Position numbers and translations under genes: made by a program. From contig JBEWZL010000108.1 of NCBI GenBank assembly GCA_045837725.1, forward strand, positions 62,001-124,150: a DNA stretch of 62,150 nt, in the 5' to 3' direction. This DNA is from Vermamoeba vermiformis. Lineage: Eukaryota. Shown here in pieces: positions 45,133 through 55,447 of this stretch. Below the pieces are notes generated by a model, which did not search any database, was not told where the DNA came from, and saw only the letters and a list, made by a program, of their open reading frames with translations. Position 1 is the first letter of the stretch, and every line of letters begins with the position of its first letter.

Positions 45133-45518
45133 AAAATGGTGATATTGCTTCGTGCGTATGACACCGGTAGCATTCATTTTTTGTTAATAGTTGTAATATA
45201 AATATTTAGAGTATTTGTAGTCCAATTTAAGTATTACAAGTGTTAATTTTGGTGCAAGATCCATTCGCACTGAATTTTTTCTTTAATTAACGCAGCATCG
45301 TTTGGTATATTTATGACTTATAAGTAAGCCGATCTGCAACTCTTATTCGTAATATACGAAGACCAGAAAATAAGAAAGTAGTCGCGGCGCAGAAGGGGAG
45401 GTAGTTTTCTGTGGCGGAGTTGAAACTCCGATCCGTCAACATAAAAAACCAACAATCCGTTTCATTAACCATTTCAATAATCAATAACAACAACAACAAC
45501 AGATATTGAAGTGCTACA

Positions 45519-46998
45519 ATGCAAATAGACAACGCAGATTCCGTTCACCAGTCCGTCAGCGAATACTACGGAAAAGTTTTGCACCAGACTACGGATCTCA
45601 AGACAAACGGTACGTACAATAATTATATTAAATATTATTTAGTATTATACCGATCGCCAGCGTAAAATGTCGATCTAAAGGCCTGATCTGATAATCATGA
45701 TAAATTTCAGTATTACTAAAACAATTTTTAATACTCACAATTAATCTACAGCATGCTGCACTGGCAAAGATATACCTCGTCATATTAAGCAAGCTCTTAG
45801 TAAAATTCATGAAGAGGTTTTGAGCTCATATTACGGATGTGGTCTTGTAGCTCCAGCTGTACTTGAAGGCACTCGCGTCCTCGATTTAGGTATGCTTCTA
45901 TAAAAATTACACGAGAATTATAACATCCAATTACTTTTTCGCCAAGATCTATGTTGGCTGATCCATCCACTTTGTACTTAAACTTCTGCTGCGTATTTAT
46001 TATAATGCAATAATTTTTTATAGGATGCGGCACAGGCCGAGACTGTTACGTATTATCAAAGCTCGTGGGTCCCAACGGACACGTAGTTGGCGTAGACATG
46101 ACCAAAGAACAGCTGGATCGAGCAGAAAAATACGTCGACTATCACCGCGAGGCTTTTGGCTATGAAAAAAGCAACGTAGAGTTCAAGTTAGGACTCATTG
46201 AAGAGTTGGATAAGCTTGGCCTTGCCGAGAACAGCTTCGATATTATAGTGTAAGTAGATTCGTGTCATTTCCTAATTTGGAAATATTCTAACAAATTGAC
46301 CAGATCCAATTGCGTCGTAAATTTGTGTCCTGATAAAGAGGCTGTATTGCGTCAGGCATATCGTACACTCAAGCCAGGTACCTATATCTGATTAATCAAT
46401 GGCTTATTGTACTAACACATGACTATATTAAGGTGGTGAGATGTACTTCTCGGACGTGTATGCGGATCGAAGAGTTCCAAAAGAATTGCAGCAAGATCCG
46501 GTCTTGTTCGGAGAATGCCTCAGCGGCGCTTTATATTGGAACGACTTTGTTAATTTAGCCAAGAAAGTCGGGTTCACTGATCCACGTGTCGTAGAATCAT
46601 CGCCGATTACTGTCAACAACAGCAAAATTGAAGCAAAGATTGGCGACATCAAATTTTACTCAGTCACGTACAGGTTATTCAAAATCAAAGAATTAGAACC
46701 TGATTGCGAAGACTACGGACAAGCTGTTATATATAAGGGCACTATTCTCCCTGAATTTCCTCACTCCTTCAAACTGGATGGGCACCACGTGATGCAAAAA
46801 GGCAAAGTATTTCCTGTCTGCGGCAACACGTATTTAATGCTCAAAAACACTCGTTTTGCGCCTCATTTTGAATTCATCGGCAACTTTTCAACGCACTACG
46901 GAATCTTTGAAGGCTGTGGCAAGAACATGCCGTTCTCGGCCCAATCTGCTACCTACACTGATGGATCTAGCTGCGCGACAAACTCTAGCTGCTGCTAA
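45519..46998 (+). CDS. AS3MT: Arsenite S-adenosylmethionine methyltransferase (AS3MT/ArsM)
   Basis: [74 protein letters not shown] and terminal CC. Confidence 0.96.
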
Positions 46999-47478
46999 TA
47001 CCCTTTTGTTTATTATTTACCATCATATTATCAAATGTTAATAAAACAATAGCAGATCCCTGAAAAATGTGTTAACAGTTTTATCGGGGTAGATCTCGCT
47101 TCACGGAGTTGTGATCCTTTACCACAATTTGTTTACGGTACGTTATATTATCCCCTTGTATAGTGACTTATACGATCCTTATCGAAAATCGATTGACGGA
47201 AATAAAATTAGCACGATTAGGAGACTATTTGACATTCGTGCCAGCAACTTTTCCAATAGAATTATTATTTTTTTGATTAAATAATTACTATTTATTATCA
47301 TACAATACAATATCGGTAAATCATTTCTATTCTCTGAGAGTTGAAGAAATATTTTGGATTGAAAATTTGATGGGTCGTCATTTACAAATTATACAAAAAA
47401 ACTGGTAACGATTGTTCAAACCGTACTATAATACATTACTTTGAGCATATTGGCGTGATGCTATCTTTTTTGGGGTGA

Positions 47479-50400
47479 TTAATCAAAGTAATAATTATCT
47501 ACGATTTGTTGTATCAGTTGACCACGAGTGTTTTCAATTGCATAAGCAAAGCCAGGAGCGCTATATGAAGCACGCTCACAATTGATAACTACGGAGAACA
47601 TATTAGTACTGAACAATAATACAGATCTAGATCTGTGAAAAAATTGGTGGATCAGATCTCGATCGACTTACGCTTTGTGAAGAAAAACTCGCGGAAGTGA
47701 GGACCCTTCTCGAATACTGGAGGATCGGGCAGTACTGGCAAGTGCGGGGCAACGCCAGATTTTGATGTGACAGACAATCTGTAGAATATTTAAGTCAGAT
47801 CTAGCTCGTTGGATGTGACCACTTCGAGCGGACTTACCTGTACATAGTTTTGCCTTCGTTGTTCGGCTCTTTGCGCACAACAAAGAAGACGTGGTTGAAG
47901 TACGAATGGACGCAAGTCGGGTTAAACGGAGTGTCGCCCTCTTGGAACACAATGACGACAATGTCGTTACCCAAATGACGCTTTCGTTCGATCTGTTGTG
48001 GATCTCCTTCAGTGAACGGCAACTCGGTGGAGACGTGGAACATAATCGAATAGTCCTTGAACTTGGTGAAATAGCTGTGCTTGCCGGTCATGCCTTGTTG
48101 CACATCCAAACCACCGTTGTAAGCCTCCCAGCCCTTGAGTTCAACCTTGTCGGCCAAGAACTCCAAAAACTCGGTGAAATCAGGGCTCGGGTCGTCTTTA
48201 GCGCAGAACATTAGCCATCGCACATTACTACCGTACGACTATTATGACACTTACTGTTGCAGAACATCTTCTCTTCTTCGACTTGGCCTTCTTTGGCGTA
48301 CAAAATGCCGTACTTGTAGCCCTTGACCATCTGTCCGAGCGCGTTAGTTTCGTATTAAATTTTCACGAGCTGAGAGGACTTACCAGTCTGAGTTCCATAT
48401 TCAACAACTCTTGCTCCATATCTTCGTTCTTGATTTGCTTGAAAGTGATGCCAGAGTACTCAGGATACTCGTCCTTCAAAAGCTTGATCATTTGTTTCGG
48501 CTTCATGCGCGAGGCACGGCTGCCAGTGCTTTGGAAGTTCTTCAAGCTCATCTTCAAGCGGCGATCAGACTTGCGGACACGAATCAGCAAGTTGAGGGCC
48601 GAAGGCGTGCTAGACTCAGCAGCGGCTGATCGAGGAGTAATCGAGTCGCCTTTTTGCCTATGAACAATTTAGTTTTGTTGCTCGTAATGTGCGACACTAA
48701 CATCATTGTTACGTACTTCTCAGCACCAAAGTCGTTCGCGCTCGGCTTTCTTCGGCTGCCGATGGCACTGATGCCCAATTGACGAGACGAACGAGTCTTA
48801 GTCATGTTTTTGCTATTGAAACGAGCGTTAGGTCAAAACTTCAAGGCTCAAAAACAATCCTTGACTTACCCCTGTTCCGTGGACTCTTCATCCTTCTCGT
48901 CAATCTTCTTGTCCTCGCTGTTGCGAGATTCACGGTCTCTGTCCTTATCCTTCTCCTTATCCTTGTCTTTCTCCTTATCCTTGTCTTTCTCCTTGTCCTT
49001 CTCCTTGTCCTTCTTTTCGGAAGAAGTCATCGTGAGTCGACTTCCCTTTTTAGTGATCTTAGGAGGAGTGACATCGCGTTGGTGTTCACCGTTCGAAGAT
49101 GATTCTTTGCCAGAGAAGCGGACACTGCTAGGACTGTCCTTAGGGTCCTTAAGTTCGGCTGTTTAAATCGTTAGCGACTTGTAACGATATTAGGGATTCA
49201 CGAGGTACGTACCGCTGTTACGCTTAGACTCCTTCTTCTTCGAGGTAGAAGACAAGTCGAAGTCGCCCGACATGGTCACGTTCTTGCGCTCTTCTTTCAC
49301 GCTGCTAAGCATCATTTGACGCTTCAGCATGACCTTCTCCTTCTCACGCTTCAAATCACGACTCTTGCTCTTCATCAACTTGCCGTTGTTGCCAGGCTCA
49401 ATCGATCGAGATCGTGATCGGTGCAATGAAGGACGACCGGACTTGTCCTTATCCTTCTCGCTCTTGTCCTTGTCTTTGCTGTCCTTCTCGTCGCGAGGAG
49501 TGGCGGTGTCTTCACTCGTCTCGTGAGTCTCGCTGTCCTCTTCGTGACTGTTCGTAGCAGCTGTAATACTGCTGTTGCTCGAGTTGTGTCTAACGGATCG
49601 AGGAGACGGCAAAGGCTTTTCTTCTTTAGGAGTCTCAGCTTTGCGAGGTGAGTGTTGAGACTTGTCTTCCTTTGGCGTGTCAAGTTTCTCACTTCGTGCG
49701 CTGTCCTTGTAATCGCCACGAGCGCTATCCTTGTGCATGCTGGTCGTTGAGAGCGCAGAAGGCAGATTAGCTTGACTCGATCGCTTTTGCAACGAAGGTG
49801 AGTCCATGCTAGCTGCAGGGCTGTCAATGGCATTAGCCTTCAAGTTGTCAGTCGAAGGCTTCTTCTTCATCATCTTGTCCTTGCTCTGCACACGGCTGAA
49901 GAAGTTGGGTACTGAAGGAGACTTGGCTTTTCTCTTAAACTTCAAAGTACCGAACAACTTGCGCTCCTTTTCTTCGGGCTCGTCCTCGTCTCCCTCGCGC
50001 AAGATTGAAATCAAAATTGCACCGTATTCCTTTGAAATACCGATAAAGTTGTGGTGAGGCTTGCCAAAGAACTCATTTCCGTAGTCGAAAATGAAGTTGA
50101 ATTCTTGCAATTGCAAGTCTTCAATGTCAGGCATCTTGCCTTCATTTCGATCGATACGGAAACCTCCTGCAGGTGCGATCAACTGAGCAATGCGTCTGTT
50201 CAAGTTGGGGCTGGTGCCAGAGGAGACAAGCTTGTCCATATTGAGCACAGGAATATCAAGCTCAGCCTGACGGGTGAGTTGATCATCCTTCGGTGGGCTT
50301 TGACGAGGCACATCTTCAGAGCTGTCAAGGTTTTGTGCTTGTCGCTCTTTACGACGCTCTTCTTCAGCAGCAGCGGCAGCGGCCAAGACAGTAGTGATAT

Positions 50401-53400
50401 CTTGGTTTTGCACAGTTGCTCTAATTTCATTCAACTTGGTAGGGTCGAACTTCTTGACGACGACACGCTTGATTAAGAGAGCTATGAAAGGGTTAATATC
50501 AACTCATTGGGACAACTTTAGTATGCTTCGCGTACCTCTCTTCTCGTTGGTTGACAGTCTCTTCAAGTCACGAGGAGTAGTTCCGTCATTGATAGCGCTG
50601 CTGAGTGACGACGCGCTCTGTGATCGATCCAACTCGGCTTGCAAATTGGCTGAACTGTTACGCGTTCGAGGAGCATTACGCGCACTAGGCTTAGTCCAAT
50701 TGAAGTGCTTGCGAATAGCCTCCATGCCTTCGTTGCAAACTTCCTTAGGCGGGTCAACGAGAGGGTTCTCTTCCAAATCAATCACTGAGCAGTTGAGATC
50801 GCAGAAGCCCTTAGAGAGCTTCTTGATCTTGTTGTTGGCCAAGTACAACTCGGTCAAGCTGGCCATGCCGCCCAACTCATTAGGCAGCTCCTTAATGTCG
50901 TTGTGTGACAAGTCCAAGAGCACCAAGCTAGCCAATTGTTCGATGGTCGCAGGAAGTTCCTTCAATCTGTTACCTCGCAAGTTAAACTCTTCTAATCGCT
51001 TGAAGTTCGCAATAGAGTCAGGAAGGACTGTAAGTCTGTTGTGCGAAATATCGAGGATTTCCAACTTGCTCAACTCTCCGAAGTTGTCGCGGAGCTCGCC
51101 CAATTGATTGTGAGCCAAGAGCAATTCTTCAAGCTGTCGCAATTGTGCGAAACCGACCGGCAAGAACTCCAAGTTGTTGCCACTCAAGTTCAGCGCACGA
51201 AGATTGCGCAAGGTGCAGAAACGGTTCGGAATCAAAGAGATAAGATTGTTCGATAGATCAACAGTTTCCAATTGCTTGATGTCGGCCAAGTTAGCAGGGA
51301 CTGTTCGCAGCTTGTTGCCGTTGATGTAGAGAATGGTCAAGTTGGTAAAAGTGACTGCAAACCAACGCGGCAACATCGTCAACTGATTGTCCGTGATGAC
51401 GACTTTTTTGCAGGCGTCCATCTTTTTGCTATTAAAGAATGGACATTAGAGAGTTACCAAGACCATCAATAATACGATATCAACGTACCCCTTGCCGAGT
51501 TCTTTGGGCAAGTATTTCAGTCCCGAGTCCTTGAGTTCGAGGGTCGTGGCATTAGTCGAAAATACCTCGTTGAACTTGTCGAGCAATTCTTTGGAGACGG
51601 GCTCGTAGTTGAAATAGGCGTCGTCATCTACAACAATTAGTATAGACTCTTAAGCGATATATAGGAGCTGCTAATTACCTTCGTCAACGGGCTCTTGGTT
51701 GTCACCTTTGCCAGCGTTCAAGTCATCGCTGTCAGCGGTGTTTCGTTGATTAATCTTGACCTCCTCGTCTTCGTTTTCCTCCAAATCACCGAATATTCTA
51801 TCGACCTCCCAGCCTCGTTTTCTAAGAAGGCAAACATTAGCAAGACGAAACATTACCATGACTAAAATCATACCTGAAATTGACCGTGATGGCTTCTTCG
51901 GGGCACGTTGCCAAAAGCTGTCTGACCTTCTCTTCTTTGTTGTCGGGAAGGAACATGACAACCCAGCTCAGCAGCTCTTTGTTGGTCTTGCCAAAGTCAG
52001 CGCGGTACTCTTTGAACAACAACGGCAAGTTCACCGATTTGTTGCGGAAACTGACTTCGATATCGGCACAAAATAGCTCTGTAGCCCATTGCAGCGCCGA
52101 ATCCATATTTTTTGAGTCCAAAAATCGGATTGGCTGCGAGAACTTGTCGCAAGAAATCATCGCAAAATGAATTCTACCGAAAAAAGTTAGGCATTTGCTA
52201 CAAAGCAGAAATTATCCCTAAAAATATTTACCTTGGGTCTGCTTTGGATAAACCTGCGACTCTTGCCATTTCTTTTCTTGACAGCATTTTTCTAATTTGA
52301 TCTGAACCGCTCGAAGACTTGGGCTTGCCACGAAGAATGGCTTCAATGGCTTCCAACGTGTAATTTTGACCGCCAATATTATAGCTGTATTGTGAATATA
52401 ATTTCGCCTTATCTGCTTTTGATTTCGGTTTGTAGCCCAAAACAATCTCTCCGTGTAACAGCAATACTTTGTACATTGCCAAGTAAAATAAAATTGCCTC
52501 CTTCGTCTTCAGCCCCGATATATCGACCTATGCAAAAATGGAGTTAGATTTTCCTTGCGGATGAAGATCCGAAAGTAGATTCACAAAACCAAAATTTTTT
52601 AACCGTTATAAATTTGACAAAACTGTACCTTATGTAACTCTATAGTGTTGTCGCAAAATACTGTATATTCCTTCAATTTCTTAATTTTCTCGTAGTCGAC
52701 ATTTCCATCGTCCAAATTCATGTGGCCTTCATAAATCGTGTTGATTGTGTCCTGCAAATACAAAGCGATATCTAGAGCACTTCTAGAGTCGCCCGTATAA
52801 ACCATTCGTCCGTTTAAAACATCGGGGTTATCGTCAGCCTTTTGAATTTGAAAATTAAATCATGAATCGATATCGGCATAAAAAAGGCAAAATCCCGAAT
52901 AAATGTGAGAATATTATTATACTTACGTAAAATCTGAATAATGAAGAATCATTTGCGACGGGCTTGTCTTCCTTGATCCGGTAAAAATAACCCTTCGTGC
53001 GTAATTTTTCGGCCATCCGTAATGCTTCGTCCTCCGTTGATTTATTATTGACAGTCAACCATTTAATTAATGCAGAGCCTGTGGCGTATAATAAAATGTT
53101 GGCATTTGTGACGAAAATTCTCAAAGATACTCGCTCGATCGTACCTTTAAAAGTGTGGCTATTTTGAAACCGATTCTTCAATTCCAGTCCGTTGTTCTTG
53201 TCTCGAAGCCTTTTGAAAACCTGGAAATATGATCAGCAAATTTAAACGAAAGTATACAATGCCGATTTTACATCTTCGAGAACAGGATCAAGCTTCAAAT
53301 TTTTCCACGGCGCCAGGGTCTTTCGGCGAGACTTTGGAAGAGCTCTGCTATGACCATTCGGTGTGTCTTGAAGCTTTTTAAGCAAATCATCCAATCTGCC

Positions 53401-53711
53401 GTTATTCTGTAGCGTTTGGAGCTCATCGAGGCCCTTCAAACCGGAACAACATCAGTTAACAAAAATAAATTTACAAAATAATCGAATTAAAAATCATGCA
53501 TAAATTTAATACATACGCCTATGAACTCATCCTCGAAAAATACTTGAGGAATACAGCGTTTGCCTTTAGCCCAATCGGCAAGCTCATCGACGACCGTTGG
53601 AAACTCGGTCAAATTGATTTCTGTAAACTGGACATTCTTCTTTTCGAATATATTCTTCACTTTTAAGCTGAATGGGCATCCAGTTGTCGTGTAAATAATT
53701 ATTCTGCCCAT
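47479..53711 (-). CDS. Multidomain glutaredoxin-DEP-DUF547-LRR-RapGAP protein
   Basis: Grx (YTTTGCPFS..IPQVFF..FIGG), DEP (FKGSALIKWL..FRF), DUF547 (DPRIHFAMISC), about 10 LRRs (50504-51421), RapGAP (YKYGILY, GGLD, IMFHVSTELP, ERKRHLGNDIV). The DUF547-to-LRR junctions were checked and stay in frame. Confidence 0.82.
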
Positions 53712-54439
53712 TTTTGAACTACTGTTGGATGTGAGATTAACGTGGACCGCTCTTTATCGTTTGCTCACAGTAGTCAATAAATCATAAAATGGCAAATATC
53801 TACACTGCTTGCTGTTAAGTCTCCAAGGTTCTAAGTTGTTCTGTTCGCCGCTAAGGAGTGTATTATTTTAGAAATTTTGGACGGCGTATCACGAAGCGAG
53901 ATAAAAAATAAATTTCATAAAAATACAATTCATTTGTATGATCGTTGCCAGCCTATCAGTGACCACAATGCCTACATAGGGGCATTAGCGAAACGCATTC
54001 TGCATCAAGAAGATTGATGACGTTAGCGAACTTTCGATCATTCATAAATTTTATCAAATTCGCATCGGAATTGCTTTCTATCCTTCATTTAATAGCTTGC
54101 ATTAATAATAACTTAATTAGTATACATAAATGACGTGAATTTACGTGATAAACAATTTGATTTTTGTTATGACCACAGTGGGAGCACGATCTGAATCAGC
54201 AACCAACTCTTCCGAAGTTGCGAAATGATAGAGAAAGATTCGCAATGTTTTGTAGGCCCACGTTAGACTTTCAGACCGGGTTCACCATTTATGTAATAAA
54301 TTTCTCGCCCTGAGATATTTCAAGGCTCCGCGTATAAAACCGAAAAATTGCACGAGTTTTTTGTCAATTTTTGTTCTTGCTTGACCGGTGAAAACAACTC
54401 ACCACCTCTTGTTTATTATTTATGGGCTAAAGCGCAATC

Positions 54440-55447
54440 ATGGAACCTTTTACCTTCAGTCAATATTCTTTTACTCCCAATGACAATGATCTTTTGGATT
54501 TGACAAATCCTTCAGAGAAAAATAGCCCGCTTGCCTCGACTTCTCCTGGTTTGACCATGCAGCGGTCAATGCCCTTCCAAGTGAAGAAGGAGCCAATGCT
54601 TGCGAAGAGCGACGAAAACAATTCGTTGTCTCCTTCTTTGTCGCCGATGATGATCTTACCCGGAAGCAATCCGTCCCCTACAACACCACCGCAACACTTT
54701 GGAATATTAATGCCGCAAGCAATTCCTGCACCCATGCCTGCACGCCTCCCATGGCAATTGGACCCTTACGCTCTCAATCATTTCAGCCCTGTCATCTCTC
54801 CTCCTCAAGAGCTTACAATCCTCAATCCAAGTCCCAAGTCTTCGTTCTCGCCACCTCAACAATCGACATCACCTAATATTCCTGCTATGCCTATGGGGTC
54901 AGTATCTCAGCTTTCTTCGGTCGCCCAACCTGCGATCATGTATCGCAATCTCTTCCACTTGGTAGAATGCCAGCTCCCGCTTACAGACGGCATGAGCAAC
55001 TATGACGGCTACAGAATATTCATCGAGGACACTGTAGGATACGCTGGCAATGCAAAGATTTTCAAGAAGACACCGGATAAGGGAGAACACGCACTCACGC
55101 TTACATGCAGAGTTTTGGATGTGAATCGACAAGAGCTATTCCAATGCTCATCGTGCCGAGAATATTTTGAAAATCGAATGTACTTCAAAGCCAACCCTCA
55201 CATCAAAGGCAGAATAGTTTTGGTTAAAAACAATAACTTGATCAAAGTGGAAAATGGCTCTTTCAAGGTCAATATGAAGTATATGTGCTGCTGCAAGCAT
55301 CACGCAGTATCTAGCTACACCTTATCGTTAACGCTCTCGGACAACTTGTCAAATAACGTAGTTGCATCAGCGTTGTTCCCGATCTACGTTAAGCAATGGA
55401 GGAAGAGCACTCAAAAGAAGCAAAGCTGCACTATCATGTTTTCATAG
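54440..55447 (+). CDS. Intronless putative transcription factor with an SPT23/MGA2- or CudA-like Ig-fold DNA-binding domain
   Basis: Ser/Pro-rich N-terminal half. C-terminal CSSCRE..RIVLV..MCCCKHH..LSLTLSD..VVAS..PIYV resembles the CxxC..CYCRHH pattern of SPT23/MGA2. Confidence 0.65.
   Translation: MEPFTFSQYSFTPNDNDLLDLTNPSEKNSPLASTSPGLTMQRSMPFQVKKEPMLAKSDENNSLSPSLSPMMILPGSNPSPTTPPQHFGILMPQAIPAPMPARLPWQLDPYALNHFSPVISPPQELTILNPSPKSSFSPPQQSTSPNIPAMPMGSVSQLSSVAQPAIMYRNLFHLVECQLPLTDGMSNYDGYRIFIEDTVGYAGNAKIFKKTPDKGEHALTLTCRVLDVNRQELFQCSSCREYFENRMYFKANPHIKGRIVLVKNNNLIKVENGSFKVNMKYMCCCKHHAVSSYTLSLTLSDNLSNNVVASALFPIYVKQWRKSTQKKQSCTIMFS

Follow-up and report, generated by a model that had tools for sequence, protein, structure and literature searches.

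A Vermamoeba gene joining a glutaredoxin-DEP-DUF547 cassette to leucine-rich repeats and a predicted Rap GTPase-activating domain, and its amoebozoan relatives

A 62,150-nt stretch of the genome of Vermamoeba vermiformis (assembly GCA_045837725.1, contig JBEWZL010000108.1, positions 62,001 to 124,150; called the window below, with positions counted from its first letter) carries a multidomain gene at 47479-53711 on the minus strand. We read it, with a probability of about 0.8, as a single gene for a 1714-aa GTPase-activating protein (GAP) acting on Rap-type small GTPases. The N-terminal third of the predicted protein corresponds to the glutaredoxin (Grx)-DEP-DUF547 cassette which is known from plants as class IV glutaredoxin. 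After it come an acidic linker, about ten leucine-rich repeats (LRRs) of the SHOC2 type and a segment resembling the Rap-GAP dimerisation domain; a long insert of low complexity then leads to a catalytic domain of the Rap1GAP type. A fused, spliced mRNA exists, and sequence comparison makes the gene a member of a rare, conserved amoebozoan fusion family. The preceding sequence-only reading of this region had proposed one gene with these five domains (Grx, DEP, DUF547, LRR, RapGAP). Its proposal is upheld by spliced RNA over the disputed junctions and by unbroken full-length orthologues, Trinity transcripts among them.

Gene model and domain content

At the level of open reading frames (ORFs), the minus strand from 53753 to 47479 appears as a series of stop-to-stop ORFs with recognisable domains. 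Introns were positioned by hand on the DNA and the exons were then joined by coordinates. Translation of this assembly yields a single frame with a coding sequence of 5145 nt (1714 aa) at 53711-47479 on the minus strand, composed of 18 exons and 17 introns and without any internal stop. It starts with the ATG at 53711 and ends with the TAA at 47481-47479. All 17 introns have GT..AG borders and lengths between 51 and 101 nt, and the domain order along the spliced frame is Grx, DEP, DUF547, LRR, RapGAP. The features are listed below; joints are positions at which contigs or reads skip an intron.

47479-53711, minus strand: whole coding sequence, assembled and translated; at least 15 of 17 introns seen as joints
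53712-53849, minus strand: 5′ untranslated region, reaching at least 53849 (X1 contig record 4 extends to 53849; depth about 0 beyond 53832-54075)
53517-53711, minus strand: exon 1, glutaredoxin domain (PF00462, 2.2e-16) with CPFS at 53678-53667 (Cys12) and the C-I-P-Q cis-Pro motif; intron 1 joint 53432>53516
53272-53433, minus strand: exon 2, end of the Grx domain and linker to DEP; intron 2 joint 53218>53270
52927-53220, minus strand: exons 3 and 4 (53220-53145, 53078-52927), DEP domain (PF00610, 5e-6 on the unspliced ORF) split by the 66-nt intron 3; joint 53077>53144 in X1 and X2 contigs
51874-52838, minus strand: exons 5-7 (52838-52629, 52527-52232, 52173-51874), DUF547 region (PF04784, 1.7e-10)
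51822-51873, minus strand: intron 7, 52 nt, the disputed junction between DUF547 and the rest; joint 51821>51874
51679-51821, minus strand: exon 8, K-R-G-W-E (Trp468 at 51811-51809) followed by the acidic linker, without Met; from orthologue alignment
51489-51627, minus strand: exon 9, end of the linker and first LRR-like repeat T-L-E-L-K-D-S-G-L-K-Y-L-P-K-E-L, without Met; same repeat aligned in 5/5 orthologues shown
50536-51428, minus strand: exon 10, SHOC2-like LRR domain (LRR_8, 2e-35) and start of the post-LRR region
48384-50481, minus strand: exons 11-14, conserved post-LRR segment, Ser/Lys/Asp/Glu-rich low-complexity insert with KDKEKD repeat, and start of the conserved pre-GAP region (weak PF21022 match)
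47479-48330, minus strand: exons 15-18, RapGAP catalytic domain (PF02145, 5.7e-48) with Asn1600 at 47968-47966 and Asn1698 at 47532-47530
47268-47478, minus strand: 3′ untranslated region to a poly(A) site near 47268 (poly-T loose ends in 4 X21 reads; depth 0 below 47244)

Most details of splicing in the sequence-only reading were accurate. Both borders given for intron 7, donor 51873 and acceptor 51822, are exact (AG/GTATGA ... CTTCTTAG/A, slashes marking the splice sites), and the frame is kept over this intron as AITVNF-R-KRGWE. The acidic linker, which had been drawn to about 51680, ends with its exon at 51679. An exon had been proposed at 51628-51489; it exists but starts one base later, at 51627, and its frame continues with KKMDACKK at 51428 in the LRR exon, as had been claimed. 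One frame runs over all 18 exons, which agrees with the statement that neither a stop nor an intergenic gap intervenes.

Pfam was scanned with 10 unspliced exon or ORF translations, four of which returned no family. The glutaredoxin match was obtained with an exon translation. The DUF547 match of a single exon (41.4 bits) and the Rap_GAP match of the core exon alone (163.4 bits) exceed their cut-offs of 27 each. DEP was matched in an unspliced ORF with 26.8 bits, below its cut-off of 32.7 because intron 3 splits the domain; the DEP domain of the orthologue P0001 scores 34.9 bits. The GG..DE motif of the glutaredoxin straddles the junction of exons 1 and 2. The Rap-GAP dimerisation domain PF21022 is matched weakly and under its cut-off (0.0097), with values of 2e-4 and 1.4e-4 in orthologues. 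Among solved structures, the LRR exon is closest to LRRD1, to Leptospira LIC proteins and to SHOC2, which it matches at 3e-58. No matching solved structure was found with the DUF547 core exon alone or with the last exon alone, and a search of the ESM Atlas with P0001 gave no usable match.

Spliced RNA across the disputed junctions

Contigs of two runs (X1, X2) and raw RNA-Seq reads of two others (X21, X23) were mapped on 47000-54300. These four belong to 23 public runs listed, each of which contains less than half of the sampled words. The contigs of X1 and X2 are read as RNA because they are without introns. Together, intron-less contigs and RNA-Seq reads provide joints at the predicted places for at least 15 of the 17 introns. 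Introns 6 and 13 are not among the joints listed, and there are indirect signs for both: a piece of an X2 contig ends exactly at 52173 (intron 6), and a 12-letter loose end at 48657 agrees, but for one mismatch, with the last letters of exon 13 (intron 13).

The joints include those around the disputed region. Intron 7 is removed in one contig each from X1 and X2 and in two reads from X21, intron 8 (51627>51679) in one contig each from X1 and X2 and in two reads from X23, and intron 9 (51429>51492) in six reads from X23. One X2 contig of 670 nt contains exactly exon 7 (51874-52173) with flanks of 121 nt and 249 nt; the longer flank has the length of exon 8 (143 nt) and 106 nt of exon 9 taken together. 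Further downstream, record 2 of the X1 contigs covers 48870-51109 with introns 10 and 11 removed. The depth of the X1 and X2 contigs has no step near 51650.

In X21 and X23 the gene is represented by a divergent allele or relative. In their reads, 21 other letters take the place of the region around the boundary of exons 16 and 17 (47783-47864), and at 48523 all reads over the position lack 3 nt (7/7 and 22/22 in X21 and X23). In the KDKEKD-type low-complexity repeat at 48936-49013, one X1 contig shows an 18-nt length difference and the depth of X2 jumps to 60. Many loose ends at this place run into unrelated sequence; similar repeats of other transcripts evidently map here.

The junction between DUF547 and the leucine-rich repeats

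Family alignments reveal two types of DUF547 end: canonical members end in (Y)-x-x-Y-D-W, and those fused to LRRs in (F/Y)-(R/K)-(R/K)-x-x-W-E. The pattern (F/Y)-x-x-x-W-E is present in 7/7 LRR-type orthologues, and its Trp is aligned with the Trp of Y-D-W in four canonical members, Balamuthia P0132 having Phe. In the window gene, the pattern straddles intron 7: its Phe is the final complete codon of exon 7, and the conserved Trp468, with which DUF547 ends, is encoded in exon 8, so that DUF547 is complete only once intron 7 has been removed. The first LRR-like repeat lies in exon 9, and exons 8 and 9 contain neither Met nor stop. With the DUF547 Trp in exon 8 and the first LRR in exon 9, the gene is not divisible at the disputed junctions.

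Related fusion proteins in Amoebozoa and beyond

When the RapGAP core exon was searched against longer proteins, 357 were scored and 120 listed. The best match, P0001 (1777 aa), is 72% identical over this exon and has the same Pfam order as the window gene; in its cluster, entries carry a JGI name that was assigned automatically, 'Leucine-rich repeat (LRR) protein/glutaredoxin'. Residues 1-1711 of the spliced model align with residues 1-1773 of P0001 at 45% identity (1435 bits). Among the matches listed (120 of 357), four combine DUF547 with Rap_GAP (P0001, P0013, P0023, P0092), and P0018 and P0033 are annotated with LRR and Rap_GAP.

Trinity transcripts from Copromyxa protea (P0130, 1368 aa), Pyxidicula operculata (P0092, 1589 aa) and Flabellula baltica (P0127, 1243 aa) are collinear with the model over DUF547, linker and LRR, and P0130 matches residues 1-1015 and 1366-1711. 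Pfam assigns all five families to P0001 and P0130 and four, without DEP, to P0092 and P0138. The latter is a second Copromyxa paralogue, in which Pfam finds Grx, DUF547, LRR and Rap_GAP, and DEP is found only by our local domain hidden Markov models (HMMs). With these local HMMs, all six segments are matched in family members. An exhaustive phmmer search with P0132 from Balamuthia gave 9632 matches at E up to 0.001. Among the best 150 of these 9632, local HMMs and Pfam identify four with DUF547 and RapGAP: P0092, P0138, P0135, which is a second DEP-DUF547-RapGAP protein from Balamuthia, and P0136, which is Polysphondylium violaceum KAF2075128.1 with Grx-DEP-DUF547-RapGAP and no LRR.

Carriers of the five-domain form are Copromyxa protea, with two paralogues, Pyxidicula operculata, Flabellula baltica and two metatranscriptome clusters. 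A form without LRRs, DEP-DUF547-RapGAP, is found in Balamuthia mandrillaris, and with Grx in addition in Polysphondylium violaceum. Copromyxa, Pyxidicula and Flabellula represent three orders of Tubulinea, Balamuthia belongs to Discosea and Polysphondylium to Evosea; by these matches the fusion is conserved across Amoebozoa, and the source of the window gene comes out as an amoebozoan, with Tubulinea as the group it resembles most. The combination had not been recognised in the sequence-only reading, and uniqueness does not hold. It is nevertheless far from common in databases, where it is present but rare, with four cases in each of the two lists.

The database orthologues P0001, P0130, P0138, P0092 and P0127 share with the window protein the five-domain order, the collinear DUF547-linker-LRR junction, the W-E motif and the first LRR motif. 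They differ in overall sequence (27-45% identity) and in the lengths of low-complexity inserts, and all of them are predictions. The proteins from Polysphondylium (KAF2075128.1) and Balamuthia (KAL6043510.1, KAL6072285.1) likewise have DUF547 fused upstream of RapGAP. They differ in lacking LRRs and in having a canonical DUF547 (98-115 bits), in one Balamuthia form with the two-Cys motif, and those from Balamuthia are without Grx.

Parts of the cassette are also attached to other domains. P0146 (871 aa, MMETSP/JGI), from a marine protist, combines Grx-DEP-DUF547 with a protein kinase, and its search against PDB returned kinase matches only. P0134 (1439 aa), from Cryptomonas curvata, has by Pfam a myosin head with DEP-DUF547. 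A word-index search with residues 1-520 of P0001 among proteins of near length returned only P0001 itself and this Cryptomonas protein; the index is too insensitive for a divergent cassette, as known orthologues were missed. The equivalent search with the C-terminal DUF547 exon among longer proteins was uninformative (0 of 23 candidates scored).

In the full-text literature outside subscription journals and supplements, no paper was found that describes a DUF547-RapGAP or a glutaredoxin/DEP-RapGAP fusion. The fusion is present in public databases as predictions, and Grx-DEP-DUF547 proteins and RapGAPs are each already known.

Origin of the fusion

A FastTree phylogeny was computed for 257 RapGAP domains, leaving out 10 near-duplicate and 3 short rows. 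When rows without a DUF547 match were counted as non-fused, the fused label appeared scattered over this tree, with 9 changes. This result was rejected because 202 rows have less than 450 aa upstream of RapGAP, so that their N-termini cannot be judged. Setting these rows to unknown, which leaves 10 fused and 45 non-fused, lowers the number of changes to 2. In an IQ-TREE analysis of the 55 informative rows, the seven LRR-type proteins fall into one group. P0200 is placed within this group at an unresolved fork; as its sequence starts in the LRR, it looks N-terminally truncated. The three proteins without LRRs form a clade (SH-like approximate likelihood ratio test, SH-aLRT, 97). One clade of all ten fused proteins is not rejected by the approximately unbiased test (p-AU 0.60; the constrained tree is 4.15 log-likelihood units higher). 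These trees are compatible with a single old fusion.

The RapGAP domain

The catalytic core exon is most similar to human Rap1GAP (1SRQ/3BRW, 3.7e-36), followed at a distance by Tuberin (2e-10) and RalGAP alpha-2 (1.9e-6). The catalytic Asn motif KRHLGND had been described as intact, and so it is: the Asn codon at 47968-47966 (Asn1600) is aligned with Asn290 of Rap1GAP, which lies in helix alpha7 (1SRQ chain index 216 + 74). R-K-R-H-L-G-N-D of the window protein stands opposite R-K-R-H-I-G-N-D, and R-K-R-H-(L/I)-G-N-D is found in 7/7 aligned family members.

The available text of Scrima et al. 2008 (PMC2265111) names residues of Rap1GAP that contact Rap, the Asn thumb included. We mapped them through exon 17, an alignment of P0124 to 1SRQ, and the family alignment. 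Lys285, Arg286, Gly289, Asn290, Ile292, Phe313, Glu373, Tyr377 and Phe382 are retained in the window protein, and the position of Leu282 is occupied by Ile. Apart from the thumb, 9/10 of the contact residues thus count as kept, the exception being Arg388, where Asn stands. The overall likeness to human Rap1GAP (1SRQ, and 3BRW with Rap1B) covers the Rap_GAP fold, the Asn thumb, the residues of helix alpha7, the Phe64 pocket, Glu373, and an upstream dimerisation-like segment. The window protein differs by a low-complexity insert of about 350 aa between this segment and the catalytic domain; Rap1GAP, for its part, lacks the Grx-DEP-DUF547 and LRR modules, and many animal forms have GoLoco (PF02188). 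From these alignments a role as a Rap GAP is well supported, and we infer that the domain is an active Rap-type GAP.

The glutaredoxin cassette

The glutaredoxin site had been read as monothiol CPFS, and this is confirmed (53678-53667, residues 12-15). The first active-site Cys is present in 8/8 Grx-bearing family members, six of which have CxxS and two CxxC. The cis-Pro motif is conserved in all eight and the GG motif in seven, P0138 having G-D.

For DUF547 the sequence-only reading had stated that only the first Cys of the usual C-x4-C remains (I-S-C-D-K-F-S-Q-P). The motif is indeed degenerate, but alignment to the canonical reference (..VCGxxSCPPI, with the C-x4-C-P motif after an H-F-A-L segment) places Cys372 (52151-49) one position after the canonical first Cys. 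Ser occupies both canonical Cys positions, Ser376 being at the second. The two-Cys motif is lost in 7/7 LRR-type members, P0132 from Balamuthia and P0146 with its kinase domain still having it, and no LRR-type orthologue has Cys372 in common.

The closest described counterparts are the plant class IV glutaredoxins (GRXlike1, GRXlike2), Grx-DEP-DUF547 proteins of about 630 aa with unknown function according to the available text of a 2026 review, which describes them as known from genome data alone and as having resisted full-length purification (PMC13621322). Compared by this description, they have the same three domains in the same order and a Grx site of the CxxC/S type. They stand alone, whereas the cassette of the window protein comprises residues 1 to about 470 of 1714, and the two-Cys motif of its DUF547 is degenerate.

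Alternative explanations

Several observations weigh against one gene for a Rap GAP. The RNA origin of X1 and X2 is a guess on record, to which the absence of introns is added; the reads of X21 and X23 are mostly only 90-95% like the window and thus come from a relative or another allele. Raw-read depth is just 0-3 over the N-terminal half, and no single long read spans the whole mRNA in the mapped runs. The Copromyxa isoform P0018 (Trinity, 683 aa) starts in the LRR, and a shorter isoform may likewise arise from an internal start of the window gene. A rival reading would be two adjacent genes, Grx-DEP-DUF547 and LRR-RapGAP, whose apparent fusion stems from chimeric assembly or read-through transcription. 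Translation of the upstream gene would run 18 codons into unspliced intron 7 and terminate there (..NFRYDFSHGNVSSC*), giving a stand-alone Grx-DEP-DUF547 protein of 481 aa. The separate ORFs of the ORF track and the greater raw-read depth over the RapGAP end would agree with this, and the unspliced intron reads Y-D-F, a faint echo of the canonical Y-D-W end. The spacing of Y-D-F is one residue off, however, and we take the likeness for chance. Contigs from two runs as well as RNA-Seq reads have intron 7 removed, the DUF547 Trp lies past it in all seven LRR-type orthologues, and exons 8 and 9 offer neither a start nor a stop. Transcript assemblies of three named species and unnamed contigs contain unbroken fused ORFs, and the contig depth of X1 and X2 is without a step near 51650. 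Two separate genes are thus already largely refuted and highly improbable. Read-through of intron 7 as the main product was also rejected, in view of the intron 7 joints and of the Trp and the alignments past the intron; a minor isoform that retains the intron may exist.

Two further points against the Rap GAP reading concern the protein itself. Arg388 of Rap1GAP, called invariant and in contact with Glu37 of switch I of Rap1 in the available text of PMC2265111, corresponds to Asn1698 (47532-47530) in the window protein and to Ile in Copromyxa P0130, so that affinity or specificity may differ. The DUF547 of the LRR-type clade is degenerate, with Pfam scores of 23-51 bits versus 98-128 bits in canonical members. 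The change at the position of Arg388 could be seen as altered specificity, the single gene then encoding a GAP for another small GTPase, Rheb-, Ral- or RapC-like. The Rap_GAP fold also serves GAPs for Rheb and Ral, in keeping with the Tuberin and RalGAP alpha-2 matches. We nonetheless consider this unlikely: the similarity to Rap1GAP is stronger by far, the pocket for Phe64 of Rap (Ile292, Phe313, Tyr377, Phe382) and Glu373 are retained, and Arg is present at the 388 position in most of the aligned orthologues (4/6: P0001, P0092, P0129, P0132). The sequence-only reading had suggested a redox-responsive switch. Oxidation or glutathionylation of Cys12, possibly relayed via DUF547, would alter the putative GAP activity or membrane binding, so that Rap signalling would track the thiol redox state. 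The conserved first Cys, cis-Pro and GG motifs of the glutaredoxin speak for it, and the occurrence of the same cassette on a kinase, and of DEP-DUF547 on a myosin head, fits a portable regulatory module. Against it stand the loss of the DUF547 two-Cys motif in all LRR-type members, the unconserved and displaced Cys372, and the DEP-DUF547-RapGAP forms of Balamuthia, which have no Grx domain by Pfam; plant class IV glutaredoxins, too, have never been shown to be active according to the available text of PMC13621322. Redox control of the Rap GAP is thus a tentative proposal, which we hold to be possible but doubtful; that the cassette works by thiol chemistry at Cys12 in whatever way is at best slightly less doubtful.

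Neighbouring genes

Downstream and convergent, at 45510-46998 on the plus strand, lies a multi-exon gene for an arsenite methyltransferase (ArsM/AS3MT-like). Its exon pieces match NCBIfam models with 2e-14 and 3.9e-10, under the full-length cut-offs. The divergent upstream neighbour, at 54431-55447 on the plus strand, is a Ser/Pro-rich ORF of 338 aa without a Pfam match, whose start and the 5′ end of the RapGAP transcript are about 580 nt apart.

Proposed function and significance

We propose that the C-terminal domain would turn Rap-GTP off by means of Asn1600 in the active site of the GTPase, as Rap1GAP does, and that DEP and the LRRs would bring the enzyme to membranes or to partner proteins. 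LRRs of the SHOC2 kind would suit partner binding. SHOC2 itself is a scaffold without a GAP domain. Epac, a Rap regulator, combines DEP with a Rap guanine nucleotide exchange factor domain and activates Rap instead of inactivating it. The Grx-DEP-DUF547 cassette most likely would be a targeting or regulatory module; DEP domains have been proposed to target proteins to membrane sites (available text of PMC13621322).

For the output, the amoebozoan Rap GAPs RapGAP1 and RapGAPB of Dictyostelium provide a functional analogy. Loss of either raises cell-substratum attachment, as given in the available text of PMC9197732, and the predicted output of the window protein is therefore lower Rap-GTP and weaker adhesion. 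By this analogy the protein would reduce adhesion to the substrate and alter motility. A paper linking Dictyostelium RapGAPs to DEP, DUF547 or glutaredoxin was not found in the full-text literature outside subscription journals; one of the characterised Dictyostelium RapGAPs might be an orthologue of the window gene.

As ORF-level views split the gene, splicing-aware models are needed for its annotation. More broadly, Grx-DEP-DUF547 may be a portable thiol-sensing and membrane-targeting regulator which has been put on different outputs: a Rap GAP in an old amoebozoan fusion, a kinase in one marine protist and, as DEP-DUF547, a myosin in a cryptophyte. We regard this generalisation as speculative and rather improbable, more so than redox control of the window protein. 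If it is true, the amoebozoan fusion would be a Rosetta-stone link that ties class IV glutaredoxins to signalling by small GTPases and at the cortex, and adhesion driven by Rap could be tested directly for redox control. Occurrence of the fusion in three amoebozoan phyla, together with the kinase and myosin fusions, leads to the concrete hypothesis that the cassette targets or regulates cortical signalling enzymes, for which dictyostelids are tractable systems. The finding is of value mainly as a testable functional lead on the class IV glutaredoxins.

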